A stretch of 64,000 bases of DNA from Heterodontus francisci (taxonomy: Eukaryota): contig NC_090407.1 of NCBI RefSeq assembly GCF_036365525.1, positions 24,828,084 to 24,892,083 on the forward strand, written 5' to 3'. Below are positions 2,530 through 60,584 of the stretch, piece by piece; the stretch's first letter is position 1; each line of letters opens with the position of its first letter. Below the pieces are notes generated by a model. That model saw only the letters and a program-made list of their open reading frames with translations, was not told the DNA's origin and searched no databases. The position numbers and the translations under genes were made by a program.

Positions 2530-2956
2530 TCAATGAAGCTCAGGCCAAAAGGGCACATAGTATCGTTGTAAAATCCCTTCAAGCAGCTTGTCCATCCATA
2601 GGTGAAGTCTGTTGAGCAGCTGCTTGGTCCGTTTCACAGATGAATTGCAGCTGTGTGGAGATTGATGTGGGCTGTTTGTTTCCATTCCAGTATCTGCCCC
2701 ATTGCCACCTTGTGTTGGTTCCAAGCCATTTAGTGTGCTGCTGTTCTCGGTTCCATTATAGAGTTCAGGTTTGAACAGGCAGAAGTAGTTCCGGTGTCCA
2801 TTTAATGCCAACACATAGCCAATGTAGTTCTGGTTGTGGTTACTTTCATCTTGTGCACTGGAAATTCGAGCAGGATCCTGGGCAAACTCTAACAGATCTC
2901 CCAGCCACCTACGATGTTTCGATAAGTTTAAAAAGGAGAAGTGTAGTGATTTATTC
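2530..2956 (-). CDS. DNAJC16: DNAJC16 last coding exon
   Basis: NKSLHFSFLNLSKHRRWLGDLLEFAQD...GYVLALNGHRNYFCLFKP...LHLWMDKLLEGILQRYYVPFWPELH-TGA. Confidence 0.96.
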
Positions 2957-5900
2957 CTGTGGCAAAATTTAAAAAAAAAAATCCTTTAAAGAGTTCATCA
3001 GCAAACTATAGATATCTCCCAAAATAAAAATATTGGAAATTAAAATTAAATTAGAAATTGCTAAACATATACAGCAGGGTCTGTCAGCACCTTTAAAGAG
3101 ACTAACCAGGTTTATGTTTCACCTTCTCCCTACACAATTAATCTTCAAATGCTGACAGGTCTGCAGCTTATTTCCATCATTTTCTGTTATTATAGATCTA
3201 TAACTGAACACTTACAGTCTTTTCAATCAGTAGCAGTAGTAAACAAATAGTTCCAACTATATGGTTAATGATTCTTTTCAGAACTTAGATTTTTCCCCCT
3301 GTCTAAACAGATTAAAAATTAACATTTAAGGTTCTCGCTGAGAACTCAGCGATGCTCTCTGTGGAGTATTAGATGATCTACCTTTAGTATGGACTTCATT
3401 ATTCTTTAAATTAAGTTTTACCACTACATATCATAGAATCACAGTTTACAGCACAGGAGACTACCATATGGCCCATCATGTCTGTCCCTGTCTGGACTAG
3501 TACTTAACAGATTAGAACATCCATCATCCCATGGGGAAAATCTGCTGGGGTCATTATCCTGTCAAGAACTTTGATCCATTGTACATTGGTTCTAGTTGAA
3601 TGACCTAGTGGCCAGGTCACGTATGGTTCTTCAGGCAATTTCATCATCTCTCTGGCACAGCATCATACTAGTCAAAGCAAATTACTGCGGAAGCTGGAAA
3701 TCTGAAATAAAAACAAAGTGCTGGCAGCATCTGTGGAGAGGGAAGCAGAGTTAACGTTTCAGGTCTGTGAACTTTCATCAGAACCTGACTGACCTGAGTA
3801 TTTCCAGCACTTTGTTTTCATATAAATACTAGTCAACTGAGCTCCAGAGCTGGTGTTGGTCCAGGTTGAATAACTTTGAGTCAGAAAGTGAAGTGGCCTG
3901 CGATCAATCCATCAAGAGTAAGAGAAAGACCACAATGTCAGTGAAGGAGCCTCCTCTCAGAGGCTTCATAAAAGGGCTCCTTTAGCATTGTCTTCAGTAA
4001 CTGAAGGCTTATCCTAACATAAGCATGTTTTCTTAAGATGGTGACAACAGCTCCACCAAGCCACCAACTCCAAGAAGGGATGTCCCATAGAACCTCTCTG
4101 CCGAGGTCAGGTTCTGTCACCCAAAGTGATGAGCCGCCATAGTGTTCATTATATCGTTCAAGAACTGTGGCTATTTTTGCAGAAGTACAAAGGAACCATC
4201 TATGTGTGAGGAGGAAACATGTAGGGAAGGTTTTCATTCCAGAAGCTACTACAAACAACAGGGAGAACATCTGATGAGAAGAGGAATTTCTTAAATGGAC
4301 AGTAGCCCTGTGATTTTGCCCATCTCCTTGAAGGCAATCCTTGTAGGATATGGAGGTAGAACAGGTAAGGGTGAATTTGAATTGTGGCATAAAGGTACAG
4401 AAATATGTCATCAGTTTAACAATAGTGGAACTAATACTTTTTGTAGTAAACAAGCGGCACAGTGGTGCTGTGATTAGCACCGCAGCCTCACAGCTCCAGC
4501 GACCCGGGTTCAGTTCTGGGTACTGCCTGTGCGGAGTTTGCAAGTTCTCCCTGTGACTGCGTGGGTTTCCGCCGGGTGCTCCGGTTTCCTCCCACAGCCA
4601 AAGACTTGCAGATTGATAGGTAAATTGCCCCTAGTGTAGGTAGGTGGTAGGAGAATGATGGGGGTGTAGTAGGGAATATGGGATTAAGGTAGGGTTAGTA
4701 TAAACAGTCGGCACAGACTCGGTGGGCCGAAGGGCCTGTTTCAATGCTGTATCTCTAAATAAATAAATAAAATAAATAATGTGGCCAACGTTAACTTACA
4801 TAATGGTTCAGCTGATTAAAGCAATGAATAGCTGAGTCATACTGACCAGAAAGGTCACATATTTGATTCCTGGGCTGTGCAGAGTTGGCTGATCTCAGTG
4901 GGGGCCCAAAATTGGCCTCAGTGCCCTGGGTGAAGGGGCAAAAAAATCTGCCAGGGTTCACATTCCAGTTTACTATTCAGTTACCCCTGCTTGAAATATG
5001 GATGTGTGCACCTCAAGTGAGGATCAACTGTGTTAACTCCTGTGGTTGACTAACTTGCTGAAACTCAAAATTCAGGCTCACACTTGGGTGATGGGTGCTA
5101 TGGAACCGTATTCCAGCAAGGAGTCAAGGTCTTCAGGGCAGAAGGGAAAAAAATGTCAAAGAAAGGAAAAAGAAATTGTTGCCAATGCCAATTTAAAAGA
5201 AAATCCTGATCATTGGAATGTGATTCCTCTTGGTGTGTCTATATGGGAGGGGGGTGTGGTTGGTGCCAGACTGGGTAGAGGTAAACAATGCTAAAAGTTA
5301 TTCAACTGTAGGAGAAATCAGGCCAGTGCCCAATAATGTTCTCGTCTTACACGTACTTCACTGCAAGGGTCAGTCAATAGTGATCAGGAGCAGGAACCCT
5401 GGCTGATAATCCTCTCTCGTCAGTCCAACCAGTGCTACTACTGTGCCATCTAAACTCAGCATAGACTAAGGACTGAACCTGGGATCTTCTGATAGCTCAG
5501 TAGTGCATCTGAATTTCCCAGCAGAGTCTCCATGTGATTTCCCACCACCCGCATATTGCACTCACCAGGTAACAGGATAGACTTCATGTGCAAACTTCTG
5601 AATTAAAGCATTCTTTGTAGCATCAGTAACCACAACCAGCACATTGATGTTTCCAGGCATCAGCCGCACAAGGTTGCTACTATAGTTGATATAGGTCAGT
5701 TCAGTCACTTCCACAAAACTCTGCTCCGGGGACCTATTATAATAAAGAATTCATAACTAGTGGAGCCTTCTTCATTCTTCAGATCTGATTATATCCTTCA
5801 CATACAGCTCGAGTAACCCCTGCCTGCTAGGTAGGTTTCAAGAACAAATGCCATGAAGGATGATGTCCCTTTAAGACTTTTGACATTCACTGTCGCTGGG

Positions 5901-8900
5901 TAAACATTCTGGGGCTCCCTCCCCAACTGTACTACAAAAATACCTTTATCACACAGGCCTCAGCGGTTAAAGGCGGCGGCTCACCGCCACCTCTTCAAGG
6001 GCAATTAGGGAGGGGCAAAAATGCTGGCCTTGTCAGAGACATCCATGAATGAATAAATTTACAAAAAGAGTTGCATGTGTGATCCCCTTCCCTTCCATGT
6101 CATATACAAATTCACCCATTTAATACCCCTCATAGTACACATTCTTTGTGAAAACCCAGACAGGGCATGTCAACAGGTTCATCAACTCTGGTGGGCGTTG
6201 AGCCCAAAGCTGTTCTTGCCTGACACTCTCACTTTCCAGCAAGAGCCAACGAACAGTCTTGAGGTACACAGACAGACAATGTGTGACACTGTGCACCCTT
6301 GTACATGCATATCTCAGATTCAGGGCATCTCAGTGTGTGACCAGTACAGGGCGTGGCTTAGGAGACATTACTGAATGCATTTGATTCAGAGTGGTAGGTT
6401 AGGTATGCTGAGGCCAATAGTCCCAAGTGCTGCAAGTCAGAGACAGACAGAAAAACATGCAAGTGAATTGCTGTACCTTGAATTCTTGGAGGTGTCGATT
6501 TGCTGCTTTTTTGATGCATCCTGAACCTTGGCTGTTGCTGGTTCTTGTTCTTCCTCAGACCTACTTTCCAAGTCACTCGGTTCCCTGAAATTTTTAAATA
6601 AATTGATTCGATATGCGGAAACCTTTCTTCTCCAGATCAGAAGTGCACTTCTCCAGTTCCCAAATTGTGGTACGTTTTGCTATTTGGTCTTGACTCCCAT
6701 GTGCAACAGCACAGGTGATCAATTAGTATATATAAATAACATATACTGCGTCAAATGCACTTGTCAAACCTCAATGTGTCACACATGCACTGAACGTGTC
6801 ACAGGTTGGCTCAAAAATCATGTTCATGAAACAGCAACAAATGACACCTGCAAAACCTTAAAACAACAACTTGATTTATATAGTTCCTTTAAAGTACAAA
6901 ATGCCCCAAGGAACTTCACAGAGGTCTGATCAGATATAAATGTACACTAAGCCAACTGAGGAGATATTCGGAGGGGTGCCAAAAGCTTGTTCAAATAGGT
7001 GGGTTTTAAAGAGTCTTATAGAAGGAGACAGAGGTAGAGAAGTCCACAAAGGGAATTCTACAGCATGGGACCTTGACAGCTGAAGCTATAGCCATCAATG
7101 GAAGATGGGATGCACAAAAGACCAGATTCAGAGGAACTTAAGAATATGGCAGGCAGAAAATTTATCAGCTGGTCCATCAAGCCAGCCCCATGAAGGAAGA
7201 GTTCTAGCAAGTATGTAAGGCTAGAGGAAGTTATAGAACCTGGGAACTCAAGGCCTTGAAGGATGGAACTTTTAAACTGGAGAGGTTGGGTGGGGTGGGG
7301 TGGGGTGGGATCTGCGTCCAATGTAGTCAGCAAGGACCGGGTAAATGAGTGAACAGGACTTGATGCGGGTTAGGAAGCTGACCAGGAGACCAGTAGAGGT
7401 AGTCAAGTCTGGTGGTGACGCAGTCCTGGATGTGGATTGGCAAAAGCATGATGGAAGCAGGTGATGTAGCCGGTTTTTGTGATGGAGAGGATATGGGGTT
7501 GAAAATTAAGCTCAGAGTCAAATACAACGACGAGTTTGCAAACAATCTGGTACAATGCAAGAAGACAGTAGCTGGGGGAGGGAATCAGTGGCAAGGGTAC
7601 AGGGTTTGTGGTGGGAGTTGAACACAATATTTAACTGTTGACTCAAGACTGCATGGTGCATAAGTAGTCTGACAACACAGAGGTAGTAGAGGGTTTGAGA
7701 GTGATCGTACATACAAGTCGCCATTGCTAATAATGGGTGCGTTGGTGTTAATGCCATTTGCCTACAATGCACAATGTACAGTAAAACCAAAAATGCACTG
7801 GAACATATTTTACAAAACAGGCAAACTCCACCTAGCAACTAGCTCTACCAATTGTTAACAGTTGCATCCAGACTCTCATCACACAGGTAATCACACTTTG
7901 ACAGTTGCCTAAAACTACTTGAAGGCCCAAGTTTGCCTGAAGTCAGTAGATGCTTTTAAATCAGTAAATACAATAACAGGGCACTTGCACGCTGTGAACA
8001 GCTCATTTAAATGGTGTGTCTAGTGACACCACTGTGGTGCAAATAAAGGAATTGCTTATTCTCACCACTGGGATGTGGGAGAACAATACTCACCCAACAC
8101 TTTGTATGAAATGTCCAATTTGATCCAGTCTGCTGTAGAGTAATTCAAGCTCTCTGCAATGTGTAATTTTGATCCAATCATTGTCAGGCAGGTGAAAGAG
8201 CTCAGGGAAATCACAGCACCGACACTCCCGATTCCAGGGAAATCACAGCGCCGACACTCCCGATTCCAGGGAAATCACAGCGCCGACACTCCCGAGTTCA
8301 GAGAAGTCACAGTGTTAACAGTCCAGAGTTCAGAGCATATGCAGTGCTAACACTACCAAATTCAGACAAGAAGGGATGAGGCCATGGTGGAAGTTGAACA
8401 TGAGGATTAGAATTTTAAAAGCAAAGCGTTGCCAGATCAGGAGGCAATGTAGGTGGGTGAGCATGGTGATGATGGGCACTGAGTTAAGATATGGGCAGCA
8501 ATGCTTTGAATGAGCTCAAGTTTATGGAGGGTAGAAGATGAGGCGCCAGCCAGGAGCATTGGAATAGTCGAGTCCGGAGGTTGATACGGCTAAATGCCAA
8601 CTCACTAGTGCAATTCTGGAACACTGTTTTGACAGGGAGTTACATCTACTACATTGAAACTGCAGTTTCTGAGCAGTCTAGGCCACTTTGAGACTTCCAT
8701 CTCTGGAAGCACTGACTTACCACTATACAAGTCACAACAACTCTATACCCTACTCCTAATGTCCGGCTGGTAGCTACATTGATCTCCTGGCCTGCTCCAG
8801 TTACCAGGGTCTTCCTCACTTCATATCTTGGCTCCCTCATTGCAGTGCAAGTGAAAGTTCTGGACTCCTCCAATTATTCCATCAAAGGTACCATGAGAAA

Positions 8901-11900
8901 AGAGACACCCACCACTGCCTGCATGAGAAACCAATATTTCTGAACCATTGATCTTTAACAGCCCAAGCCCCTGAGATCATGGTCTTGGAATGCCCAGTTG
9001 AGGTCTCTTGCTTATATCACCTGGGGAGTCTGATGTCTCCTCAAAGTTGCCCGTTCCTGCTGCTCACTGCTGGGATCTAGCCAATAATATCTGCACTATG
9101 TCAGTAAAAGCACTTCCCTAAATAGGTGTATCTGAACTGTTGCTTGAGTAAACAAGATGGTACAACAGAATGGATCAATCAGCTGCAGGAAAGATCCTTC
9201 TGGAGACACCAAGCTTCTCAGATTATTTTTTCTCTGAGCATTCAGCACCTTTGAGGAATGCGAAGGAGAACCAACTGTTCATCACAAGGTTGTACTGCTT
9301 GAGTACTGCAATGTTTCCCTGCACCTCATCAAGAGCTGACTGCTGCCATTCTCACAGAATTTTGGCCCTTGCCAATCCAGAGGTGGGTGACAATTTTTGA
9401 AGCATCATGCACAAAGATACTAACAGAACTCAGCGAGGAGGCAGAAAAATGGTTCTGTGGCCAGACGGAGGAGCTGCACACCAGCTATTTCCATGGTTTA
9501 GGGATGCCCAAATGGACAAGCAGGTGAGTGAAGTAGTTATGAGGACAGGCCAAACTGGCAAGCCCATGAATGAACACTTCAATCCGATGTGGTGTGTTGT
9601 AGCCATTTCAGAGGCTGAAATGGACAAATCCACAGCATTGACCCTTTACATAATTTGTGCTGCTCGTTTGGTTTAGTGAGGTGCATTGCATTCAACTAGA
9701 GCAGGTAAGGGTGACATCATTGGAAGTGACATCACGAGCAGAGACATAGCTTTAGCACGTGTTGAGTGACCTCATCGGGTGCCTAGTGCATGCAAAGAAG
9801 GATGACATCACAGGTCAATTGAGACCCACACTAATCACTTCATCAAACTGAACTGCGATGACTGATGAGGCATCGTGCATGGGTTATGGATTTTTAAAAA
9901 TTATTTTCAGGTTTATTGGCTAGAATGTGGTTGGGAGGTGGTGGGGAGAAAGGTGTACGGAGGACGTTCTACTCCAGAAAGCCAGTTGGTGAAGGATAGA
10001 ACAGTAGTCAATCTTTACACACTTTTATATTTATTCACATTACAAACATACACCCACTAACCCAACAATCACAATTTCAGTCTCTGTCCATTTATAGGGA
10101 TTCAAGTGAATCACCAGTTAATGTCCACCACTTGCATATAATTAAGTACAATTAATATACAATTAACAGGGGACACATTTTAGTGAATAATGGCACTGCA
10201 TCCTAAATTCAGGCCATCCAATGACCTCACTTGACACGCACATGCCAGACCTTCTGATAAATCGCTTGCTGCTATTCATGATCAAAAGCATGATCCGGAT
10301 CGGGGGTGGGAAGAAAAAGAGTGGGAGAATGTGATCTAGATCTCAGGGATGTTGTGGGGGGGTGCGGGGCGGGGAAGAGAGAGGGTGGTGCCTGGGGAGA
10401 AAAAAAAGAATATGATCCATCTCCCAACTGGATTATGCTCTCCCTCTCTTCCCCTTAGAGCTATTCCCACTCGAACTGTGGTCTCCCCATGTTCTGCTTC
10501 CCACCAATTCCCACTATTTCCCCGCCACCCTGCTCTGCTTCCTACAGGCTCCTGCACTTCACCTCTCCACCCACCGAGCTCCGCTCCCTCCATGCTCTGT
10601 TCTCCCAGTGTACTGAATACGGAGGATAGATGTGAACAGATCAGACCACTTATCACTGGGCATCGCTTAACATTTGCCCACCACATACTTCACATCAACT
10701 TTTTGCATGAAGCTGCACCGCCCGCCCCCCAAAATACAGAAAGCAGACAGCAAGTCTATTGGCATCCCAAAGAGAAAAGATAGGTTCACGTTTTGGGCAA
10801 AGCCTCTTCCTCAGAACTCAGGGTTCTTCACTCAAAACACAAACCTGAATTTTTCTTTTTCAGATTCTGATGGACCCGTTAGGTACTTCCAGTTTTCAGG
10901 GTATTTTTGTACTTCTATGATATGAAACTTCATGTTTCTTACCCAAAGGCTTGAATGATGAATGCTCCAAAAAGAATGAAAACCACAGAAAAAAGCAGAG
11001 AAATCAAAGGCATCATTTCCCTCCTGAGACAGAAAAAGAAAGTTAGCAGACTGCAATCAGTTGCTGGGTAATAAAAAAACATATACTTAACAGTGGAAAC
11101 ATACTGACCAGCTGATGCACAGGAATTTTAACGTGATCAATGAGCAACAAGGAATAGTTGTAAAAATCCAAAAACACAACATCTAGCTAATAATGAGCCA
11201 AGCCCTGTAAGTCTGACAGCCAGTGAGTGTTTTGGGTAGATGGAAGCAAATTTTTTGCCGCAGTAAAGAAACATCAAACTCAAATCCATTGCTTTCAATA
11301 ATAACAGCACAAGCAACTCCAGCATGAAACAGCAGGTCTACCCCAGCAGCACTGATCCCAGCAAACATCTGCATTAAACATCTTGATGAAAACACATTTT
11401 CAGCAAACTATACTCCGGAACCTTAAACCCATTTTCTTAATTTAAAATGAAACCAGTTAGTATTTTATTTTTGTTATTGAGAGCCCCAGCTAAAGGCGAA
11501 GACTGGATAGTGAATTTGAAAAGAATAAAACAGAAAAAGTGATCAATTAAGAAATAGTGGTTATATGAAACCAAGCTTGGATTTTAAAGTTGAAGAGAAC
11601 AAATATGAGAATGAAACATAAAGGAGTGAGAGTCTGTTTGATTCTCAAGATCTACCCCCCTATTGTACCAACTTCAGATAAGTTAGTGATGGAGTGATTG
11701 GGAGACATAAAGGTTCAATTTCACAGGTTAAGGTGATTTAGGGAAAAGAAATCAGCCAGGATCCTTTTGAAGACTTTGGGACTCTTTGCTGTGGAAGAGT
11801 TCATAGGCTCCAGGTGCCCAACAATACTTTGTCTAACTGGTAATTATTCATCTGCGAACCTTGACAGTGAGTATAATCAGATTCTCCATTAAAGGCATTG

Positions 11901-14900
11901 CAGTTGAGCCTAATGCTATTCCCACTTGACTTCCACACCTTCAGCTGGGTGAGTGTAAATTACAGGAAGCAAACATGATGAAAGGTTCTATCGGAAACAT
12001 GAACCAGTTTCCTGTCTTTCAGACTCTGGCAACAACAACTACTTGTATTTATATAGTGCTTTTAATGAAACAAGATGTCCCAAGATGCTTCACAGGAGTG
12101 TTATAAAGCAGAATTTGACACTGGGGCACATAAGGAATATTAGGGCAGATGACCAAAAGCTTGATTAAACAGGTAGGTTTTAAGCAGCGTCTTAAAAGGA
12201 GAAAAGAGGAGTAAAGAAGTGGAAGGATTTAGGGAGGGAATTTCAGAGCTTAGGGCCTAGGCAGCTGAAGGCACAGCCACTAATGGTGGAGCAATTAAGA
12301 TCAGAGATGTTCAAGAGACCAGAATTAAAGAAGCACAGCTATCTTAGAGGGTTGCGAGGCCAGAGTAGATTACAGAAATAAGGAGGGACAAGGCCAAGCA
12401 GGGATGTGAAAACAAAGATGAGAATTTTAAAATGGAGGCATTGTCAGACTGGGAGCCAATGTAGTTCAGCGAGCGCAGTGGTGAAGGGTGAACAGGACTT
12501 GGTGCGAGTTAGCACATGGGGAACAGACTTTTGGATAACACCAAGTTTATGGAGGGTAGAATGTGGAGGCTGAACAGGAGTGTGTTGGAATAGGCAATTC
12601 TAGAGAGAACAAAGGCTCTAACAAAGACCTGCTGTGCACTTCCAGTATTTTCTGTTAATTCAGATTTCTAGTATTTGAGGATTTGCATTTTAGCTCTACA
12701 ATAACTTTCTCACATCTCCCTGCCATCTACACAATTTCTAGCAACTTGTGCCTCTAAGCATCAGGATACAAGAAGCCACATTAGTGATGGCTGGCATTGG
12801 CACCAGGTACATACCAGTTCTGAGTGAACCCAGATTCCCAGATTTGAAATGCATAATCTGTTATGGCATACAGCCAGCGAAAGAGGAACATCTGCAGAAA
12901 GAGCATTGGGTTCGAGTTTTATAGAACAGCTCAGTATTAACTAAAACCACAACAGCAGCTTATATTTAGAGCTTTGTCACACCTGAGCATGCACACTCCC
13001 ACCAGGTAAACTACTGTAAGATACAGTCAGTTGTGCTAAATAAAAAGTCTTAAACTGAACTCTAAGTAAATGTACTCTTATTCTGATTTTCAAACAGAAG
13101 ATTATTCTCATACATGTTCAGGTGTTTCGTGGTTTTTGTACTTCTGTTTCTCTGTGATGAGATGAACTAGTCCTAAAACTTGCACTGATAATCAGGAATG
13201 ATAGTGGTTTAATGAAAAATATTTTCTGCAGACAAGCAACAGGATAAACCTAAACTTCTCATACTTATTATAGTTCAATAATTAATTTAAAATATACTGG
13301 GTAGAACACTGTACCCCTTAAGCCAAGCAGTTTTGAAGGTTTACACTTGTTCTCTCTTTAATTATGCAGCAGTTTCTCCCATTTACATTTAACATTCCTG
13401 TTGCACAATTCTAAACTTTACAGCCCCATGTAATTATTTGGGAAATGAACAGCAACAATGGACTTGTATATTGTATCAGGAACTGAGGAGAAGCACAGGT
13501 GCTTATCAATTCTCTGTTGGATTATATGCAAACATCATCTATTTATATAAATTAATAGCTAACTAGTCCAATGATGACTAGACCATTAGTTCACATTTTC
13601 CTGAAGGATTCGGGAGAACTGAACATCTCCCCAAGATCTGCATGGAGAGCCTCTACATTCAGTGCTACAGTTAGGGTTGCCAACCCTCCTGAATTGCCTG
13701 GAAGTCTCCTACATGGACAATCAATCTCCTGGACGCTGCTGCTAGCAACTGGGGAGACAAAGTACTTTGTGCTCCAGTTCATGACTGGGTGCACCTCCGA
13801 TGGTCCAAACCTGGGCCATGTGTAATCTATTGCATGTTCATGCGACTGCACTTTCAAAAGTTAATGTGCAGCAAATCTTCTAACTTATTTGGACTTAGTA
13901 ATATAAACTCAATACTGCTAATGCATTTCTTTCAGCATATTTATTATGTTGTGTCTATTTACCATCTGAAATTTCAACATTTTAAAGTCCAGTGGGACTT
14001 TCATGAAGGAAAACTATAGCTTCTTTCAATTTCTTACTGCTGGCTCATGTCGTCATGGTCTCCTGCAGACAAAGGTTGGATGAACAGTAAAATTGGCAGA
14101 TTTTGTTAGACATGTGGCCAGGAAAACCCACTTTATTTCCCCATGATCTTCATTCCTGGCACTGGCTTATCTGTGGCCGGTAGAAGTACTACACCGGCTG
14201 CAGTGTGCTCTTCGTATATTTGAAACACAGCTCCCACCACCCCACCCCACAAATGCATTTTAAACATTCGGTTGCCTGTCTCGTTAGTTTATTCTGTCAT
14301 GGCATCATCACATCATGACAGAATTAAATTGTGCCTGCACAGCAGCCAATTTGTCAAAACCAACCTGTTTATTTGTATTCCTTGGAACAGAATTTGCTGC
14401 CAGTCTCCCTACAACTTCTGGTGCAAAATTTGAGAGATCAGTAATCAAACCATTAAATTAAATGCAAAACATCTGCAAACTGTAATTATCATGTGACTGA
14501 ATGCCTTTGACAGAAGCTCCAGGAATAGATCCAACCACAGTTGGCAATCCTAGGTACAGTTCAGTTGCTCAACATCAGGGAATGCTAGTTATCAATTTAA
14601 CTTGGCCTTCGAATTTGGCTCATTACTTCCACACTAACCCAACTTACAAACTGACAATGCAAAGATATGGTCTACTCATTTTGGTCATTTTCTTGCTCCA
14701 ACAACTTGTGATAACCACAGATAATGTAAAAGACTAACTCGAACATTCATGTGGGCAATAATTAAAACACTTACTGGTGCAAATTCATCATTTAGCTCAG
14801 GTAACACAACATCAAGCGAGAGGATGGTGTGGTCTCCCACTCCCAGTAACTGATTCAGCTCATTAAATAGATGTATTTTGTCATCCTCTCTCCCATTCCA

Positions 14901-29136: not shown

Positions 29137-30652
29137 AATCCAGAAATCCCCAGCAACAGAGATTCCGGTCTTCAGCCAATTTGATTCTCTCCACGTGATA
29201 TCAAGAAATGACTGAATGTACTGGATACTGCAAAGACCACAGGCACTGACAACATTCCGGCAATAGTACTGAACACCTGTGCTCCAGAACTTGCCGCGCC
29301 CCTCGCCAAGCTGTTCCAGTACAGCTACAACACTGGCATCTACCTGGCAATATGGAAAATTACCCAGGTGCCTCCTGTACACAAAAAGCAGGCAAAATCC
29401 AACCCAGCCAATTACCGCCCCATCAGTCTACTCTCGATCATCAGTAAAGTGATGGAGGGTGTCATTGACAGTGCTATCAAATGGCACTTGCTTAGCACTA
29501 ACCTGCTCAGTGACGCTCAGTTTGGGTTCCGCCAGGGCCACTCAGCTCCTGACCTCATTACAGCCTTGGTTCAAACATGGACAAAAGAGCTGAACTCAAG
29601 AGGTGAGGTGACAGTGACTGCCCTTGACATCAAGGCAGCATTTGACCAAGTATGGCATCAAGGAACCCTAGCAAAACTTAAGTTAATGGGAATCGGGGGG
29701 AAAATTCTGGTTGGAATCGTACGTAGCGCTTGTGGTTGTTGGAGATTAATCATCTCAGGTCCAGAACATCACTGCAGAAGTTCCTCAGGGTAGTGTCCTA
29801 GGCCCAACCATCTTCAGCTGTTTCATCAATGACCTTCCTTCAATCATAAGGTCAGAAGTGGGGATGTTCGCTGATGATAGCACAATGTTCAGCACCATTT
29901 GTGACTCCTCAGATAATGAAGCAGTCCATGTAGAAATGCAGCAAAACCTGGACAATATCCAGGCATGGGCTGATAAGTTGTGAGTAACATTCGCACCACA
30001 CAAGTGCCAGGCAATGACCGTCCCCAACAAGAGAGAATGTAACCATCTCCTCTTGACATTCAATGGCATTACGGTCCCCCACTATCAATATCCTGGGGGT
30101 TACCATTGACCAGAAACTGAACTGGAATAGCCATATAAATACCATGGTTACAAGAGCAGGTCAGGGGCTCGGAATCCTGCGGTGAGTAACTCACCTGACT
30201 CCCCAAAGCCTGTCCACCATCTACAAGGCACAAATCAGGAGTGTGATGGAATACATCCACAAACATTCACTCCCTCCACCACCGATGCACAGTGGCAGCA
30301 GTGTGTACAAGATGCACTGCAGCAAAGCACCAAGGCTACTCAGACAGCACCTTCCAAACCCGTGACCTCTACCACCTAGAAGGACAAGGGCAACAGATGT
30401 GTGGGAACACCATCACCTGCAAATTCCCCTCCAAGCTACACACCACCCTGACTTGAAACTATATCGCCATTCCTTCACTGTTGCTGGGTCAAAATCCTGG
30501 AACTCACTTCCTAACAGCATTGTGGGTGTACCTACCCCACATGGACAGCAGCGGTTCAAGAAGGCCACCACCTTCTCATGGGCAATTCGGGAAGGGCAAT
30601 AAATGCTGGCCTGGCCAGCGACGCCCACATCCAATTAAACCAATAAAAAAAG
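29137..30652 (+). mobile_element. CR1/L2-group LINE, 5'-truncated RT region and 3' tail
   Basis: NYRPISLLSIISKVME..QFGFRQGHS..LDIKAAFDQVWH, QGSVLGP, FADD; poly(A) end at 30652. Confidence 0.92.
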
Positions 30653-34365: not shown

Positions 34366-37300
34366 CTGAAAAATAGATATATTCTGAACAACCTGCTCAA
34401 AATTCTCAACAAGAGGATGCACAGGCCCAACTGCTTATACTGTTCCATATTTTTTTTTTAAACTGTAAAACAGACTTTTGAAAAGCCAAGATGCATGCAG
34501 CCTGTCCTGAAACTGAGCGATAGGAAGTTCTCAAATTTGATCCCCAGGCTGTGATTGCAACCCTGGTGACAGCTACAGAATTGCAATTCAACTGGATTAA
34601 CAGAGGGTCAGCTGGTCAAGGGCCTCTCTCCTGATCGCTTTTAGTGACCTGCACCTAAAGTGCATGTATGAGGATAGGATCAGGCTTGACTGTAAAGGAA
34701 ACAGCCTAATAACACTCACCAAGACAACATACATGATGAATGGCTGCCCAGGGAGGTTGCTGAATGCCTCAACCATATTACAACAAGATTAGTACCTTCA
34801 GAAAAAAAACTAGTGAGAAAATAAGGAAAAGCAAAATCAGCCCACTGAATCTGTTCTTGTTGATATTCCAGATACAGTCTACATTTCAAGTAATCGGTGT
34901 TGTCTATAAAATTTCAGCAAAACTTAACAGTCGGTGCATCAAATTTCCACACCATGTCCACTTCAACTATGAAAACATCTAGCAGGACAATTATAGATTT
35001 GTCCTTCCAAACTTGGACTGTATCTGGAGAGGCCAATTTGAGCTGAATAATACTGAACTATGGGTGCATAAAGGTCTATCTTTAGTGATGGTAGCGATGG
35101 AGCATTTTGAGGGAATGAAGTATTGCATTAGAGGAGTACACGTATAAAGAACAACTGCTTCCTCTAACATATTGATATCAATACACTAAGTGCATCTGCT
35201 GAGAAAAATGTATACTGATTAATTTAGATACAGCTGTCCAGATTTGCAAGATCCACAAATTTCCAGCATTACCAGTGCCAGTAAAGATTTTCCCTCTTTC
35301 CAAATTGTTGCTTTGCTTCAGAAGAAAAAATAGTTTGTAAAGCCAATTCCAATTAATCAAGGTCTGACACAAGGCTGAGGTGTTGTCACTTGTGGCAGAT
35401 AAATGAGAGATTTTAAGCAGGTGAATCAAACTACAACAACTTTCATTTATATAGCACCTCTAATCTAGAAAACATCCCAAGGCACCTAAATAACAGCATC
35501 ATCAATAAAACAATTTTTGACACTGTGGCACAGAAGGAGAAATCGGAAAGGATTTGAGCAAAGAGATAGGTTTTAAGGAGCATCTTAACGGAGGAGAGAG
35601 GGGTAGGGAGGGAATTCCAGAGCTGAGGGCCAAAGCAGCTGAAAGGATGGCTGCCAATGGTGGAGTGATTAAAAAAGATGTGCAAGAGACCAGAATTGGA
35701 GGCTTGTAGGGGTGGAGGAAGTTACACAGATAGGAAGGGGCAAGGCCAAGTAGGGATTTGAAAACAAGGATGAGGATTTAAAATGGTCAGATCTGGAGCC
35801 AGTGCAGGTCAGCAAGCACTGGGGTAATGGGTGAATTAAGATAGTGCAGAATTTTGGATGAGCACGTTTACATAGGGTGGAAGGTGGAAGATTGGACTGG
35901 AGAGAATTGGAATCACCAGAATCTGTACCAAATAAACACAATGCAGTTTTGGAGTGTTGACCCCAAATGTTAAGACTCAACCAGCAGTATTGTGTTCAGA
36001 GTAAAAATAAAACAACTCACCCTTGTTAGGAGTGTTTGTAGATCATCTGAGTGAGCATAGTTACTGAATACATGCACTAGCGCCTTCATGTACCAAGACC
36101 CCTCTTTTTTATCTCGCCAGGACACATAGCCTAAAGGAAGGGTTCAAAAATATCCGAATAACCCATTTTGACAAGTAACAATCAGAGAAAAAAAATCTTA
36201 GGCACTAATTTGTTTATGCAGCCCCAGCATCCTGTCAAGCTGCACTCCCATCACAGCCCACAACTGTCACTGCGTAACTCTCAAAGCTGTGACCGCACTT
36301 CAAAAACTCATTAGGTACTGGCCCAATAGCTGAGTGCTGTTCTCCAGAGTCTCTGCAATTGCAATCCACTAAATAAGGTTCACTATTACACATATTATAT
36401 ATTATGAATATAACAACAATATATTGCAAGCAAAAACAAGTGCAATAAGAAAACTGCAATAAATATATTTACAACACTTTAATTAAATTACCTGGTAAAA
36501 ATCAGGAAAGGACTTGGTACTTTAAGGATCATTACTGGGAATACAAGTTACTCAGACTGGCAACAGATGGGAGGTGGTGTTCCACAGGAATTGTTGCTGG
36601 GACCACTATTGTTCACCATTTACATAAACAATTGGAATTCTAGAATCGGAAGTACAGTTTCAAAATTTGAAAATGACACTAAATTGGGGGTATAGTTAAT
36701 ACTTAGGATGACTGTGACAAAATACAAGACATTAATAAACTTGCAAAACGGGTGTGTAATTGGCAAATGAATTTCAATATAAATAAGTGTGAGGTGGTGC
36801 ATTTTAGTAGGAAGAATAAAGAAGCCGCATTGTCCTTGGAAAATAAGTCTAAATGGGATAGAGGAGCAAAGGGATCTAGATGTACAGATAAACGCAACAC
36901 TAAAAATAGCGACACGTGTTAATAAGGCCATAAAGTAAGTAAACAAAGCACTGGGGATTATTTCTAGAGGAAAAGAATTTAAAAGCAGAGAAGTTACTTT
37001 AAACTTGTATAGAGCCTTGGTTAGACCACACTTGGAGTACATTGAACATTTTTGGTCTCAACACGATAAAAAAAAGATATAGAGGCACTGGTGAAGGTAC
37101 AAGAAAGATTTATAAGGATTATACCAGAACTGAGAAGTTATACCTATCAAGAAAGATTGAACAGGCTGGGGCTTTCTTCTCGAGATTAGATTAGATCTAC
37201 AAGGTCTTTTAAGATTATGAAAAGGTTTGATTGAGTAGTTGTATAGAAGATATTTCCAATTGTGGGGGAGACCAAAACCAGGGATCATAAATATAGTCAC

Positions 37301-40300: not shown

Positions 40301-43300
40301 ATGCCCAGGAAATGTGGCTAATGTAGTTGCAACTGCAGTGTGCACCCATACCCAGCTAATGTCAGTTACCGTAAAAAGGATAATTTACACACTAATACTT
40401 GTTCTATACTGACTTGTGTTTAGTATACGTAATGATGGGATGAAAATCTTTGGTCCGATAGCTGTCCTGTAAACTGTCATTCTCAGAGAACAGACAAGGA
40501 AGGCTGATATGACAGATGTAGAATATCACAGTATTGCAGTAAGGGGTGCCGTCTGGGATAAAAACAGAAAGTGCTGGAAATACTCAGCAGGTCTGGCAAC
40601 ATCTGTGGAGAGAGATGCTGCCAGACCTGCTGAGTATTTCCAGTACTTTCTATTTTCATTTCAGATTTCCAGCATCCGTAGTATTTTGCTTTTATTTTAG
40701 GGTGCCATCTGAGGATGGGACTGAGGTACATTATTGGAATGAGGCAGAGAATCGCTTTACTCTGTAGTTAAGCCATGCTGTACCTGACCTGGCAGTGCTT
40801 GATGCTTCCAGTAAGTGCCTGAAATCGGAAATTATTCCATTCCCAAGTAGAAATACTCTTCAGTTAAATGAGTACAAAGTTTCACTCGAGCATGAAAGGA
40901 AAAAAAAAAGGTTCCATATTGAGAAGTAGTCGCCCTTATTCATCAAATAAAGGGATACGCCACACACTACAAATAGTTTATTTCCCCTACCTACTTCTCA
41001 GCTAATGCATTTGATTTCTCTGTTTGTAAGCACTCCCACACCATGCACCATTTACCAGTTATGGGAACAAAGCCAGCTCCTTGACAAATGTACATAGGGA
41101 CATACCATGATGAACTGACCTCTGATTTTTTTTGTACCATCTTAGGCTGGAAGTTTTGACCAGGACAAAGGTCCCCTTCATTCTCTCGACTTAAGCAGAA
41201 ATTCAGTAACAAGTAGGCAAAAAGCAGCATGCTTTTCCAAAACAGTTATTTGCTATCCATAGCTGCTACAAGTTCAAGGGTGGCGCAGTGGTTAGCATTG
41301 CAGCCTCACAGCTCCAGAGACCCGGGTTCAATTCTGGGTAATGCCTGTGCGGAGTTTGCAAGTTCTCCCTGTGACCGCGTGGGTTTTCGCCGGGTGCTCC
41401 GGTTTCCTCCCACCGCCAAAGACTTGCAGGTGATAGGTAAATTGGCCATTGTAAATTGCCCCTAGTGTAGGTAGGTGGTAGGAAATATGGGATTACTGTA
41501 GGGTTCTTGGTCCCTAGTTGCTATTTAACAACCCAAATTGGCCAAAAGCATTTTGCAACTTTATTTCAGTTTAACAACAATAATATCCCTCATGTCAAGA
41601 TATTAAACTGCTCTTTCCGTATAACACTGTTTGATTTTTAATTCAAACTCTATCTGTCTGTACATCTATTTTCAGTCATTCCAGAAGTTGAAGTCTAACA
41701 AATGTCACTGCCAAGCATTTTGCATCAATGAGAAAAATAAGCACAAAAAACCCAACAAATAGTGGAAATCTGAAATGTAATAATGCTGGAAACACAGATC
41801 TAGTCAGCATCTGAAGAGAGAAAAGAACAATTTTCCCCAAACGTTTACTTGTCCTTACTCTTTGATAGACACTGATGAACCTGCTGTATTTCCAGCATTT
41901 TCAGTCTTTGATTCAATTCTCCCAAAAGGCTTGTGTTAGAGTGCACTCTATTGGACCTCGCTTGCATGTCTGTCCTTTGCAGGAATACTAAAGGAACTGT
42001 GACCTGCAGGTCTTTAGAAGATGGTGGCATAGTGGTAATGTCACTGAACTAGTAATCCAGAAACCCAGACTAATGCCCAGGGGACACAGATTCAGATCCC
42101 ACCACAGCAGCTGGTGGAAATTAAATTCAGTTAATTAATCAAAAAAGCTGGAATTGAAAACTAATCTCAGTAATGGTGTCATGAAACTATCATCGATTGT
42201 AAAAAAAAAACACATCTGGTTCACTAATGCCCTTTAGGGAAGGAAATCTGCTGTCCTTATCTGGTCTGGCCTATATGTGACTCCAGACCCACAGCACTGT
42301 GGTTGACTCTCAACTGCCCTCTGAAATGGCCTCACAAGCCATTCAGTTGTCAAAGGCAATTAGGGATGGGCAACAAATGTTGGCCTTGCCAGCAATGCCC
42401 ACATCCCATGAAGGAATATTAAAAAAACACACCACTTCCTCACCAGTGTAGCAGCTCAAAGATCGTGCACAAATTTGTATAATCCACCAAAGGGCAGTAC
42501 ATCATAGGTAGTGGTACAATTATACATTTAGTAAGGTCATTGTTATTATGCAAAAGAAATGTTTCTAAGTCAGGTTCAGCAGGAAACAGAACAGGAAAAA
42601 CTAGAGCAGAAAAAGAAGTAGAAAGCAAATGGTTGCTAGGTGGCAGTAGAAGTTAAAACCAAAGAGAAAAACACCAAAACACACAAACAGAAGTCAAACA
42701 AGAAAATTGCACCCTTATTGTTTCAGTATTACTGACCCACCAGACTAAATTATGCCATGCAGCTACTGTATCTATTGTTAAGTCAGCATTGTGACTCACC
42801 TGACTGCCATGTGAAAGAATAACTACAACACAACAGTCGAAATTCTTATGGTCCTTGTGAGCAAGACTCTTCAGCTCCTCCACCATTACCTGTCAGAGAG
42901 AAACATAGAACAGAATGAGGAAACACCAACAATCCATGATGCAACATTTGTTAAAACTAAGACTTTCACAAATCAAGTCACCATGGGGAACATGTAATCA
43001 TAGTATTGTCATTCAGTTTCGCCTGAGCAAGTGTAAAGTGGTTGGGAGTTAGAGGAGAAAGAAAATCATAAGGCAGCAGGTATCTCTAAGGGCTTGTACC
43101 ACATACAGTTTCAGGGATGGATAAAGTCATTATATAAAGATTAAACCTTCTGCTATGTCCAACTCCAACTGCTGGTTGGAGAAACTAGGACTAGGGTGTA
43201 TAGTCTAAAAATTAGAGCCAGACATTTCATGAGTGAAATTAGGAAACATAGGATATATGACACAGAAACAGGCCATTCAGCCCAACCAGTCCCTGCTGGC

Positions 43301-46300: not shown

Positions 46301-49300
46301 ACCTTCACCCACCAAGCAAAATCTCTCCCCTCAGGCTCTCCTTCCCTGACCTTGATCATGTTTCATTCTCCAGTTTGTGTCCTATTTCCCCTCATGCACT
46401 ATCCAAGCTCACCTGGTCCATGAAACCCATCTTCTACTCTCTTGACCACATTCCCGCTAAATAGCTGACCATTCAACTGCCCTTCCTCTCCACGGGTACC
46501 ACATCCCTCCCTTTCAAAACTGGCTCAAAAAATACCCCTCAATCCTTAGGTCCTCAAACAACCACCCAGCCTCCAAATTCCCATTTCCTCTCCCAAGTCC
46601 TTGAATTTGTTGCTTCTGAAATTTGTGCTCATCTTTCCTGCAAATTTGAATCTCTCCAATCAGGTTTCCACCCTGAAACAGCCCAAACCAGAGTCACAAG
46701 AGACATCCTCTGTGACTGCAACCCTGGTGCATTTTTCTTCTCAACCACATCAGCCCTCGAGACGGTCCTCATACTATCCTCTTCCAAACCCTCTCCTCTC
46801 TTGTGCAACTCAGTAGAATTGCCCTCTTTTGGCTTCATTCTTACCTGTTTGATGGGAGCCAGAGCATCTTTCTCAATGTATTTTCTTTGCACCTACCCAT
46901 CACCATTGTCTCTGGGTCTATCCTTGACCCACTCCTTTTCCTCATCTACAGCTACATGTTGTCCCTTAGAGACACAATTTGGACATTAGCTTCCATATGT
47001 ACATTAACAGCACCCAGCTCTACCTCTTAACCACCTCTCTCGACCCTTTCATTGCCTCTGTACTGTCAGACTGCTTTACTGACATCCAGTCTTTGTTGAA
47101 TTTTCCTCATTAAATATTGGGAAAATATTTGCTCCCTGTGCTCAGTGACCTACATTGGCTCTCAGTCAAGCAACATCTCGATTTTAAAATTCTCACCCTT
47201 GTTTTCAAATCCTTCCAAGGCCTCAACTCTCCCTATCTCTGTAATCTCCTCCATGCCCACAACCCTCCCAAGATACCTGCACTCATCTATTCTGGCCTCA
47301 AGTATCCTGATTTTAATTGCTCCACCATTGGTGGCCGTGCCTTTAGCTGCCTAGGCCCTAAGCTCCGGAATTACCTCTCTACCTCGCTTTCCTCCTTCAA
47401 GACACACCTACTTTTTTAACCAAGCTTTTGGTCATCTGACTTGATATCTCCTTATCTGGCTCAGTGTCACAATGCTCCTGTGAAGCACCTTGGGATGTTT
47501 TGTTACATTAAAAGTGCTATATAAACGTGTTGTTGTTGAAAAACAAAGCCATTGTTTTGATCACAACCACAAACTCCAGACCCTTGCCAATGATTCCATT
47601 CCCTAATCTGGCTAGTATCCCAGGCTAAGCTATACTGTTCACAACCTCGGCATCCTATTTGATCCCAAGTTGAGTTTCCGATATATCCTCTCTGTCGCAA
47701 AGACTGCCTACTTCCACCTCTGAAAGATTGCCCATCTCTGCCCCTGTTGAAGTCCATCTGCTGAAGAAATTTACATCCATCCCTTTGTCTAGAATTGTCT
47801 GTTCTAATTCTGTCCTGGACAGCCCTTCCATCTTCCACACTCTGTAAACATCAGCTCATCCAAATCTCTGCTTATCCTATTCTATCCCACACCATGTCCT
47901 GCTGACTTATCACCATTGTTCTTACTATCCTGCTTTGGCTCCCAGTCCCTTAAATCCTAAAATCTTAACATTCTCATGTTTAAATTCTTTCATAGCCTGG
48001 ACCCTCCCTACCCATTTAAACTTCTTCAGTCCTAGAAGCCTCACCCCCAGAACTCCGTTCCTCCAACTCCAGCAGCTTGAGCATCCCTCCTCCCAACCCC
48101 CTCACTGCCCTACCATTGGCGGCCCCACACTCTGGAATCCCCTCTGCCTCTCCATCCCACCCAAGGCTTTCCTTAAAAGTCACTTCTTTAACCAAGCTTT
48201 TTCTCATTCCTCCTAATAGCACCTCTTCTGGTTCAATGTCCATTTTTGCCTAATTACACCTCTGTGAAACACTGGGATGTTTTTCTATGTTATATATTTC
48301 TATATTGCAGGTTGTTGTTGCAGTCACTAGACACAAATCTTTCATCAGATCCTGCTTGTACCGACCCTGGATTTCTATAAATGAAGCTGATTTACACTTT
48401 ACTCCTCAGGCCACTTTTTATAAAGCGTAAGTTTAAAATAAAGTAGTTTCAAAGATGAGAAATATTAAACACAAATATCCAGGCTGTAGAGTGCTTTGGA
48501 ACACCCTTAGGTTGTCAAAGGTGCTAAAAAAAAATGCAAGTCTTTCTTTATGTCAGATCTCACAGTGCCATGTATTGAAAAACAAACCAGTTTGAAAGTG
48601 TACACTTCATAGCCCGAATGAACTGATTTATTTAACATTCGCGCCACACAAGTACCAGGCAATGACCATCTTCAACAAGAGAGAATCTAACCATCTCCCC
48701 TTGACATTCAATGGTGTTACAATCACTGAATCCCCCTCTAACATCCTGGGGGGTTACCATTGACCAGAAAATGAACTGGAGTAGCCATATAAATACCGCA
48801 GCTGCAAGAGCAGGTCAGAGGCTAGGAATCCTGCGGTAACTCACCTCCTGACTCCCCAAACCCTGTCCACCATCTACAAAGCACAAGTCAGGAGTGTGAT
48901 GGAATACTCGCCACTTGCCTGGATGGGTGCATCTCCAACAACACTCAAGAAGATCAACACCATCCAGGACAAAGCAGCCCACTTGATTGGCACCCCATCC
49001 ACAAATATTCGCTCCCTCCACCACTGACGCACAGTGGCAGCAGTGTGTACCATCTACAAGATGTACTGCAGCCACGAACCAAGGCTTCTTCGACAGCACC
49101 TTCCAAACCCACGACCTCTACCACCTGGAAGGACAAGGGCAGCAGATGCATGAGAACACCACCACCTACAAGTTGCCCTCCAAGCCACACACCGTCCTGA
49201 CTTAGAACTATAATTGCTGTTCCTTCACTGTCGCTGGGTTAAAATTCTGGAACTCCCTTCCTAACAGCACTGTGAGTGTACCTACCCCACATGGACTGCA

Positions 49301-55725: not shown

Positions 55726-56269
55726 ATTCTACCCTACATTCTTCCCATTGCCGCATCTAGTTGTCTCTTAAATTATTCCAGGGTTTTGGAAGTCTGCTCC
55801 GCGTGTTGATCTCGCTTTGCATGATATCAGTCCTAAAGTTACCTTTTATTAGTTGTGTCTCCTTCCTATGGCTTAGAGTAATATTGAACATTAACCTTTC
55901 TCATACCTTATCTTATGTACAGGCTGTTTATAAAGCCTTTGTGCAATTTTAAACTTTAATAACTTCGAATGTACATATGATAGAAGCAAACTGTAAACAG
56001 CATTTGAAAGCATAATTCATAATGTTTTTAATGTATTTTGTTAATGATGCTGAAACTGATAAAAACCCTGAAAATCTGCAATTTTTCCTTTTTCTTTGCA
56101 GTACTTTACTCTTCTCTGCATTAATTTGATTTACTTTTTTGCCCCACTCACACATGTTGTTTAGCTCATTCTCTAGTTTCTGAGTTGCCTGGTTTGAACA
56201 CATTATTCCTTTTAACCAAATTGTACTGAGCCTCTGAATCCAAATTATTGCAGATTAGAAATGCCATCC

Positions 56270-57982: not shown

Positions 57983-59150
57983 AAATAAAAACAGAAAGTG
58001 CTGGAAATACTCAGCTGGTCTGGCAGCATCTGTGGAGAGAGAATCAGATCTATGACCTTTCATCAGAACTGGCATGGTTAGAAATGTAATAGGTTTTAAG
58101 CAAGTAAAGTGGGGGTGGGAGAAGAGAACAAAAGGGAAGGTGTGTGATAGGACAGAGGGCCAGAGAGATTAACTGACAAGGAGGTCATGGGGCAAAGCAA
58201 AGAGAGTGTGCTAATGGTGTGGTGAAAGACAAGGCATTAGTGCAGAGAGAGTGTTAATGACAGAATAATGAACAGCCTAGCCAAAGGCACAAACATGAAA
58301 AACCCAGTTTAAGGCAGGCACATGGGAAAAAGATGATAAAACAAAATAAAATAAAATAATAATTTAAAAAAGGGACCAGTCATGCTCTGAAATTATTGAA
58401 CTCAATGTTCAGTCCGGCAGGCTGTAGTGTGCCTAATCAGAAAATGAGGTGCTGTTCCTCGAGCTTGCGTTGATGTTCACTGGAGCACTGCAGCAGGCCA
58501 AGGACAGACATGTGGGCATGAGAGCAGGGGGGAGTGTTGAAATGGCAAGCAACCGGAAGCTCGGGGTCATGCTTGCGGACTGAGTGGAGGTATTCCGCAA
58601 AGCTGTCACCCAGTCTACGTTTGGTCTCTCCAATGTAGAGGAGTCCGCATTGTGAGCAGCAAATACAGTATAATAAATTGAAAGAGGTACAAGTAAATTG
58701 CTACTTCACCTGAAAGGAGTGTTTGGGACCCTGGATGGGGAGGAGAGAGGAGTTAAAAGGGCAGGTATTACACTTCCCACAATTGCATGGGAAGGTGCCA
58801 TAGGAAGGGGATGAGGTATCAGGGGTAATGGAGGAGTGGATCAGGGTGTCGCGGAGGGAATGATCCCTCCAGAATGCTGACGGGGAGGGGAGGGAAAGAT
58901 GGGCTTGGTGGTGGCATCACGCTGAAGGTGGCGGAAATGGTGGAAGATGATCCTTTGGATGTGTAGGCAGGTGGAATGGAAAGTGAGGACAAGGGGAACC
59001 CTGTCACAGTTCTGGGAGGGAGGGGTAGGGGTGAGGGCAGAAGCGCGGGAAATGGGTCAGACACGGTTGAGCGTCCTGTCAACCATAGTGGGGGGGGGGA
59101 ATCCTCGGTTGAGGAAAAAGGTAGACATATCAGAAGTGCTATTGTGGAAG
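57983..59150 (-). mobile_element. Penelope-like element, 3' fragment with GIY-YIG endonuclease remnant
   Basis: Minus-strand translation CGKCNTCPF..FTCTSFNLLYCICCSQCGLLYIGETKRRLGD..PVACHFN..RKLEEQHLIF*LGTLQPAGLNIEF; terminus carries a degenerate hammerhead core (58060-58066). Confidence 0.88.
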
Positions 59151-60584
59151 TTGACTGTATGTACTTGTCCTCATGTCAGCGTCATTCTATTAAATGAGTT
59201 CCATTTATCTTCTATTGAAATGTTGTCAAACCTCATCCTCCAATGCCTGTATTTAAATTCTTCCCACATCTCCTGGAATATATGTTTTTTTAAATTGTAA
59301 ACCTGGGTCCAATTCATGTTAACATTGATTATTCTGAGGTCACGGTCTCTCAGTGGTGTTACAATGTCCAATTCCTGGGCATTGTCAGGATCATTTACAA
59401 GTACTTTCAATTTGATGAGCACCAACTCTTACCCTTACCCATTGAATTATGAAGAAATTATGCATTATGTTTACCACCTCTGATTCTGCATTTTCCAAAT
59501 TTATAATTGTGTTGATTGACATCACACATTGAAATAAATTTGCTGTTCTTCCACACTCTTAACTCTTTTTAGAAAAAACTCTCCCTCTTCTTGTGTTGAC
59601 CTAGTGTCTGTAGCAACATCAGATATCTTTTTCAAATTATATACAAGGTACTTATTATTGTAGCATAGCCATTCCCACCGGCTCAACTTAGTTTACATCC
59701 TTGTAGTTACTGACATCTATGGCTACGTCACCTCCATTCTACTGGTCCCCTGGAAGGTGTCTCATCCTCCACAGACTGTAAACTTTCACTCACTCAAACC
59801 TCTGCTGCTCATATCCTACACATCAAATCCCACTCACACCTCATTCCTGGCCTTGCTGATTTACATTAGCACCTCCAATTTAAAATTCTCAACATTGTAT
59901 TTAAATCCCTTCATGCCCTTGGCCCTTCCTCTGTAAACAACCACCACCACCCCACCATTTTACTTTGATTCTGGCCTCTGGTGCATGCTCCCCCTTTCCT
60001 TTGTCCCATTGGTGGCCATATGCACCGGAATGTCCTTCCTAAACCCCTCTACCTCGCCAATGTCTTTCAAGACCCTCCTTAAGACTTTTTGAACAGGCTT
60101 TTGGTCACTGCTAATAACCCTTTCTTTGGCTATGCATCCTACCCCCACCCATGCATTCAGCTATACATGATTTTTAAAAATTTTGCATGTCATAAGGTAT
60201 TTTTGTTATTCCCTTTCCTTGGCTTACACAGTGAATGCATATTTGTCCTACTTCAAAGACAAATCAACCCATTATCCACTTTGTACAAATGTGCAAATGT
60301 GCAGGTGAAACTTTGGTTTCGGACCTATCTAGGAATTGCTAAATGCAAACTGGACGCTCAAAGTCTGGTTTTTAATATATATTTACTACAGTACATCTTA
60401 TGATGCAGAAACTTTAATTATTAGGATTAGTATAATTTTACATCAGTCTGGAAAAGATGACAAATTAAATCATGTCCCACCCTCTTGTCTGCTTCCTGTT
60501 TGGGATTGACAGGAAGACTAGGAACTCCAGACCACACTCAGGTTCTCCGGGGACCCCTTTCACTGATGCAATGACAAGTTGGCT

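Follow-up and report, generated by a model that had tools for sequence, protein, structure and literature searches.

Sequence comparison of the 150-bp insert found in the last intron of DNAJC16 revealed that it very probably consists of the 5′-truncated end of a high-copy Penelope-like element (PLE), likely of the Neptune type, to which an inverted copy of that end is joined. An 11-bp repeat flanks the insert, which was likely left by one target-primed insertion, and its hammerhead motif is predicted to be inactive. Most likely, the insert is ordinary transposon debris. All coordinates given here refer to the window, i.e. the whole 64-kb stretch of DNA that was analyzed.

The host gene was recognized by an exon on the minus strand (2955–2533) with 100% identity to DNAJC16 of Heterodontus francisci, and 13 coding exons of the gene were mapped on that strand from 26783 to 2533, while a Pfam search of two DNAJC16 exon frames gave no match. 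The last coding intron (2956..5564, minus strand, GT..AG) contains the insert, and this exon mapping agrees with the first-pass annotation, which had placed the insert in sense orientation within the last intron of DNAJC16, an orientation that has coin-toss odds. A literature search returned no paper pairing DNAJC16 with a ribozyme. A short tandem repeat with a 64-bp offset self-match is also located in a DNAJC16 intron (8203–8370).

Both copies of the exact 11-bp direct repeat that had been described around the insert were found by exact repeat search, the left one at 3665..3675 (73% AT) and the right one at 3826..3836, with 150 bp between them. The last two A's of the left copy overlap the terminus of the PLE family, which was mapped to 3674. 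Such pairs alone are not rare, with eight exact 11-mer pairs spaced 100–250 bp apart in the 64-kb window, and the chance of an exact pair lying within 10 bp of both ends of the element is approximately 1.5e-4. In X3, a sequencing run of the same species that may equal the source sample of the window and is not independent of it, two contigs match 3300–3712 and 3789–4200 with zero differences; thus, both outer junctions of the insert are present in the X3 data. In the close relative organism B, one contig (depth 3.5) matches 3397–3712 with 4 differences in 316 nt, all of them in the flank, and although it ends before reaching the ribozyme, its left junction is filled, so that the insertion is older than the split from this relative. 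No empty site was seen among the joints listed (15 of 71 joints, in contigs of sequencing runs); runs X12 and X18 (organisms C and D) are uninformative on this point, with their unique flanks uncovered beyond one bin, and X8 is uncovered at 3827–3981. We therefore infer from position only that the 11-bp repeat is a target-site duplication (TSD).

The insert is composed of the terminal ~110 nt of a PLE pseudo-LTR (pLTR) and, in inverse orientation, a second copy of ~40 nt from that end. The direct arm (3676..3784, minus strand) is the pLTR 3′ end, 5′-truncated at 3784, and it alone carries the PLE tail, approximately 31 nt past the end point of the inverted arm (3676..3706, minus strand), as delimited by alignment with 40612–40699, where the tail is present, and with 57983 and 40558, where there is none. 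The inverted arm (3785..3825, plus strand) repeats the pLTR end in the other orientation and without the tail; it is joined near a 3-nt microhomology and ends ~31 nt short of the direct arm's terminus. Among the five young arms aligned, two have the tail (3676 and 40699) and three do not (3821–3825, 40558, and 57983). Compared with its relatives in the window, the direct arm has two deletions, one of 2 nt (near 3714) and one of 19 nt (near 3724), and compared with the family majority it carries at least three substitutions (3692, 3741, and 3771). The inverted arm retains a stretch deleted from the direct arm, the 2-nt deletion being common to both arms. The 15-bp inverted repeat reported earlier was recovered in a fuller extent of 18 nt at 17/18 identity (3707–3724/3804–3821), which includes the 15 perfect bases. 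Self-comparison of the window showed a single unit and no tandem copy of the insert. The tail arms 3674–3778 (minus strand) and 40612–40699 (plus strand) hold similar open frames, possibly the start of a PLE ORF, and in the first of them an open frame of 35 codons starts at an ATG inside the hammerhead core; none of the six candidates in a protein search matched, leaving this idea unproven.

The repeat family of the insert has further members in the window, and a profile of four young arms gave 13 matches at E up to 1 (four of them training pieces and one overlapping an exon) and none in the reversed control. A 5′-truncated, broken relative with coding remains (57983..59152, minus strand) comprises the region following the reverse transcriptase (RT) core, a CX4CxxC linker, a GIY-YIG-type endonuclease, and a tail-less pLTR end. 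In this copy, the pLTR end is contiguous with the GIY-YIG ORF, on the same strand and after its stop, which upholds the earlier proposal of an independently inserted, ribozyme-bearing Penelope derivative; the hammerhead of the insert is the minimal one of its family. In this relative, the hammerhead homologue is damaged by the loss of 14 nt that span helix III and the cleavage site, and no convincing TSD was found for the copy. Among the candidate proteins, 15 of 38 match the piece, the named ones being from skate and bamboo shark, with 57–72% identity over most of the query. Pfam assigned GIY-YIG to P0001 above the cut-off (E 7.6e-5) and to P0011 just under it (E 2.5e-4, together with a weak RVT_1 match), and reached only E 0.23 with the window's own GIY-YIG piece. 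Both P0001 and P0011 align across 59152–58386, the latter running from the RT-like region to the endonuclease, and the CX4CxxC motif upstream of the GIY-YIG-type motif is found in 58880–58386 as well as in P0001, P0003, and P0011. A CX2-5CxxC linker between RT and endonuclease is reported for Neptune and Nematis PLEs in the available text of PMC8557442, and the coding relative likewise has it. The family is, by these sequence features, an endonuclease-bearing (EN+) PLE, likely of the Neptune type; the relative is without its RT core, and its probable clade is read from the linker motif, which Neptune shares with Nematis. The literature search returned no paper on this shark PLE family or on the DNAJC16 locus, nor one combining Heterodontus, genome, and Penelope; supplements could list shark motifs, and Repbase and Dfam lay outside its scope. 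Elsewhere in the window, fragments at 29212–30254, 48633–49407, 52782–55340, and 56269–56870 resemble coding regions of LINE-type retrotransposons, and tblastn with the RT-like half of P0002 matched 29690–30055, 36522–36820, and 53517–53834.

A sister fold-back insertion of the same family was identified at 40544..40717, with a tail-less arm at 40558–40612 and a tail arm at ~40612–40699. Its flanking repeat is diverged and approximately 16 bp long (15/17 columns), and no hammerhead was found in it (40558–40699); this copy served as the internal control. In the same last intron as the insert, an older inverted pair of related pLTR ends (3034–3117, plus strand; 3146–3193, minus strand) occupies 3007–3197; it is flanked by a 7-bp repeat and includes a core-like stretch, now decayed, at 3148–3113. 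Old pLTR-end fragments, some of them inverted pairs, are located at 41762–41922, 585–650 with 1067–1125, and 12625–12675, and a core-like stretch with one mismatch is found at 41811–41845 (plus strand).

The abundance of the family was assessed by aligning contigs of sequencing runs, at 80% likeness, to 3300–4200 (901 bp). In X3, 28,700 of 25.5 million contigs fell on this stretch, with nearly all depth over the insert; the counts were 2,432 of 692,910 in X8, at least 10,927 in X12 (48% of the run), and at least 7,732 in X18 (81% of the run), a small part of the matching contigs sitting on another repeat near 3440–3490, and summed depth not being equal to copy number. A total of 1,836 X3 contigs end at 3674 and continue into unrelated flanks (agreement 0.42), and 160, 1,296, and 1,292 ends were counted at the same position in the runs of three other organisms. 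The PLE family is clearly high-copy in four organisms. Past 3784, 864 X3 contigs continue, and the consensus of their loose ends resembles the longer pLTR at 58070 onward. A scan of viral contigs with a 20-nt stretch gave no match, and the sole metagenome match to that stretch, L001 (1–1420), was rejected as chance, since it matches only those 20 nt and reads as a bacterial ribosomal-protein region.

On the minus strand, the full descriptor reads a minimal type-I hammerhead at 3749..3785. Stem I (3785–3782/3752–3749) has three pairs and one G-U; the first core box (3781–3775) is followed by an extra A at 3774; stem II (3773–3769/3765–3761) is 5 bp long, closes a 3-nt loop, and contains a U-C mismatch at 3771/3763; and the second box (3760–3757) leads into a palindromic helix III of 4 nt (3757–3754), with the predicted cut site 3′ of 3753, after a GUU triplet. 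All of these parts (the boxes, stem I, the one-mismatch stem II, the palindromic helix III, and the GUU) read as the first-pass annotation had claimed, while its description of the core as intact holds for the core boxes but not for stem II, where the mismatch departs from the PLE family. The full descriptor (stem I, core, stem II, palindromic helix III, and UH) matched once in the window, at this very site, and at least once in 3 of 200 dinucleotide shuffles. The pair of core boxes by itself is not significant, with 8 matches in the window against 5.3 expected. Rfam returned no match in the window at gathering thresholds and, on 3500–4000, six chance-level matches of which none was a hammerhead; the proposed hammerhead search thus recovers the site with the descriptor but not with Rfam. 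The features of minimal PLE hammerheads are present, namely the core boxes, an extra base after A9, the palindromic helix III, and the UH site, and both the core boxes and the cleavage triplet equal the family majority. The G10.1-C11.1 pair is absent, being A-U in the 3665–3836 copy and G-U in ~25% of the X3 family depth, and the A-U appears to be a family trait and not damage to the insert's copy. The minimal PLE hammerheads described in the available sections of Cervera and de la Pena (2014, PMC4209133), which are mostly single dispersed motifs from truncated PLEs, have the same core boxes, extra base between 9 and 10.1, palindromic helix III, and short helix I, whereas the insert differs from them in its first stem II pair (A-U versus a conserved G-C) and in its 5-bp stem II with a central mismatch.

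In a relaxed scan of the window, 12 candidate cores were found, and only 3749..3785 is without a core mismatch. A core-box match at 18705 was rejected: it falls within an exon of DNAJC16, on the opposite strand, and does not satisfy the full descriptor. Two more sense cores of this gene (3148–3113 and 10814–10787) each carry a core substitution and have no sound stem II. The second of these is a decayed hammerhead-like core on the minus strand (10787–10814), ~30 nt past the donor of DNAJC16 exon 11029–10844, that has kept the palindromic helix III and a 3-bp stem I, while its second box begins with A, not G, and its position 17 is G. A hammerhead requires G12 and a non-G at position 17.

Folding predictions suggest that the insert's hammerhead is probably not active. 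At position 3771, 94% of the X3 family depth carries the base that pairs in stem II (96%, 82%, and 73% in the other runs), and, judged from these contigs, the mismatch is nearly private to the 3665–3836 copy. As secondary-structure predictions that ignore tertiary contacts and proteins, the computed energies place stem II at +1.5 kcal/mol as is and at -5.2 kcal/mol with the majority base. For the whole insert, constraining the predicted ensemble to the hammerhead costs 9.6 kcal/mol relative to the free ensemble, or 2.9 kcal/mol once the majority base is put in. The high penalty comes from a predicted pairing in which the inner end of the inverted arm covers the core, binding to the 3′ strand of stem II and to the second box. 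A double-hammerhead dimer is predicted to lie 17.7 kcal/mol above two monomers (3.9 with the majority base), and no intact dimer partner was found in the 64-kb window. The proposal that the DNAJC16 pre-mRNA carries a potentially self-cleaving motif is thus unlikely, given the near-private stem II substitution, the predicted covering of the core, and the missing partner. Neutral decay at 3–5% divergence (the basis being at least three substitutions in ~110 nt of the insert) would leave all 12 core bases untouched by chance in 54–69% of copies. Two points count against mere decay: the insert has the only intact core that the strict descriptor finds in the window, and it keeps the helix III CpG, which is lost in 6–17% of the family depth. 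Among the experiments reported in the accessible parts of earlier studies, minimal hammerheads did not cleave in vitro as single units and cleaved only weakly as dimers (PMC4209133), and eight of nine predicted Xenopus dimers did not cleave (bioRxiv 10.64898/2026.07.22.740005). A review describes PLE hammerheads as cleaving as dimers (PMC6765202), and the ribozyme of PAc, a Poseidon element of Anolis carolinensis, is reported to cleave only with protein (PMC11167929); the hammerhead of the insert may therefore still be active in vivo.

We propose that the element's GIY-YIG endonuclease would have cut an AT-rich target on both strands, with a stagger of 11 nt. The plus-strand nick would then prime a cDNA from the distal start, with the tail, which stops ~130 nt in, just past the hammerhead, and the minus-strand nick would prime a second cDNA of ~40 nt from the proximal start, without the tail, unless the first cDNA folds back. 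The two cDNAs would be joined near the 3-nt microhomology, fill-in would create the duplication, and the inserted copy would decay neutrally afterwards. The ribozyme would be carried along as a passenger, given its position only ~100 nt from the terminus at which copying begins. Both target ends run into sequence antisense to the element RNA, one at a tail terminus and one at a tail-less terminus. The 2-nt deletion shared by both arms fits two-strand priming, fold-back self-priming (discussed for PLEs in PMC3846280), or later conversion alike and does not separate them.

This fold-back layout with a one-sided tail is already described for PLEs. An inverted 5′-truncated copy with a 30–40-bp tail often at one end only is reported in PMC8557442, and 8–10-bp TSDs, microhomology junctions, and deletions are reported in PMC3846280. 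As far as the available text of these two accounts of EN+ PLE insertions goes (Arkhipova et al. 2013, PMC3846280; Craig et al. 2021, PMC8557442), the insert shares with them the 5′ truncation and adjacent inverted copy, the tail at one end (~31 nt versus 30–40 bp), a short TSD-like repeat, a microhomology-type junction, a deletion, and the pLTR hammerhead, and differs in being very short, ~110 + 40 nt with no ORF body. For PAc, the available text of Frangieh et al. (2024, PMC11167929) reports that the purified protein nicks and extends both strands and prefers AT-rich DNA, that reverse transcription begins at two sites bounding the tail, and that insertion needs no hammerhead cleavage. The insert would resemble PAc in the extension of both strands, the two tail-bounding starts, and the AT-rich target. 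The PAc starts are given as 111–118 nt into an ORF that begins at stem II (PMC11167929), and the shark terminus lies ~118 nt from the start of stem II, counting the 21 deleted bases. PAc belongs to a different clade from the shark element, which has the Neptune-type linker.

Alternatively, the insert could be a discrete non-autonomous mini-element of ~150–170 bp, either retrozyme-like or a fold-back PLE subfamily, that is itself transcribed and then moved as a whole by PLE proteins, which we consider unlikely. Its length falls at the low end of metazoan retrozyme monomers (reported as 150–450 bp in PMC7229834), animal retrozymes are reported to be pLTR-derived (bioRxiv 10.64898/2026.07.22.740005), and both arms have a deletion not found in the in-window relatives. 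Moreover, three paralogous contigs of X12 and X8 (records 8, 30, and 31) reach from the hammerhead at least 25 nt into an inverted arm through approximately the same fold-back junction, which a mobile mini-subfamily would also give. However, these three carry 3–16 other letters and gaps, none of those listed reaches the two deletions, and independent insertions could arrive at one and the same junction through a microhomology that they share. Across the junction, the summed depth in X3, which is not a copy number, is 407 at 3787 against 794,937 at 3777 (~0.05%), and the sister copy 40558–40699 has a different junction and no ribozyme. According to the accessible text on metazoan non-LTR retrozymes (PMC7229834; bioRxiv 10.64898/2026.07.22.740005), the likeness lies in the short, pLTR-derived sequence, the type-I hammerhead, a TSD-like repeat of >4 bp, and the size range, whereas the insert differs by having no head-to-tail tandem, only one ribozyme (one descriptor match in 64 kb), a fold-back build, and a minimal instead of a canonical ribozyme, with stem II at +1.5 kcal/mol. 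The insert is a fragment of an EN+ PLE, without the tandem and the canonical ribozyme that serve as criteria for non-LTR retrozymes. The label 'retrozyme-like' given in the first-pass annotation is not supported: the insert is a single copy without a tandem unit, it combines the standard PLE 5′ truncation with an inverted pLTR and a one-sided tail, and its ribozyme-free sister is built alike.

It is very improbable that the insert, which we read as PLE debris, provides an exapted intronic ribozyme cutting the DNAJC16 pre-mRNA, as a dimer or assisted by protein, and thereby tuning splicing or 3′ end formation. The agreement of the core boxes and cleavage triplet with the family majority, the position on the sense strand of DNAJC16, and the left junction common to the close relative organism B are compatible with such a role, and conserved intronic hammerheads are reported in amniotes (PMC6155905). 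As described in that review, the latter (RECK, CTCL, and DTNB) are, like the insert's motif, type-I, sense-oriented, and located in host introns, but they are conserved across whole classes, whereas the insert is a decaying copy in a high-copy repeat. Furthermore, its stem II is broken by a substitution that speaks against selection, the core is predicted to be sequestered by the inverted arm, and the dimer is predicted to be unfavourable. The nearest other sense cores, at 3148–3113 and 10814–10787, are likewise substituted in the core and have no sound stem II, and cleavage is reported as absent or weak for minimal hammerheads in vitro (PMC4209133) and as absent for eight of nine predicted Xenopus dimers (bioRxiv 10.64898/2026.07.22.740005). 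Since ~44% of X. tropicalis retrozyme copies are reported as intronic (bioRxiv 10.64898/2026.07.22.740005), the intronic location is unremarkable. Very doubtful, too, is a reading in which the fold-back arm keeps the hammerhead switched off in the last intron of DNAJC16 until a PLE protein, as with the protein-assisted PAc ribozyme, or a family transcript binds and refolds it, so that the pre-mRNA is cut; the host gene would then contain a sensor of transposon activity, brought in by a mobile mini-PLE subfamily. Least credible is a MITE-like DNA transposon, with the inverted repeats as transposase-binding TIRs and an incidental hammerhead: the insert is short and non-coding-looking, with inverted repeats and a flanking duplication, but a one-sided tail of 31 nt separates the inverted repeat from the left end, the length of the flanking repeat differs between copies (11 versus ~16), and the insert derives from the terminus of a GIY-YIG retroelement, so that the link to the PLE ORF contradicts this reading.

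As a single locus, the insert matters little: at least 1,836 X3 contigs share the terminus of its family, and its build is already described. Its modest value is that of a specimen, with the one-sided tail, the two-arm deletion, and the 11-bp duplication forming the expected residue of two-strand priming from adjacent starts. Counting such stumps across a shark genome could show whether the model, so far demonstrated in vitro with one lizard Poseidon element, also holds for a Neptune-type family, and could reveal whether intact sense-strand hammerheads are depleted from introns.
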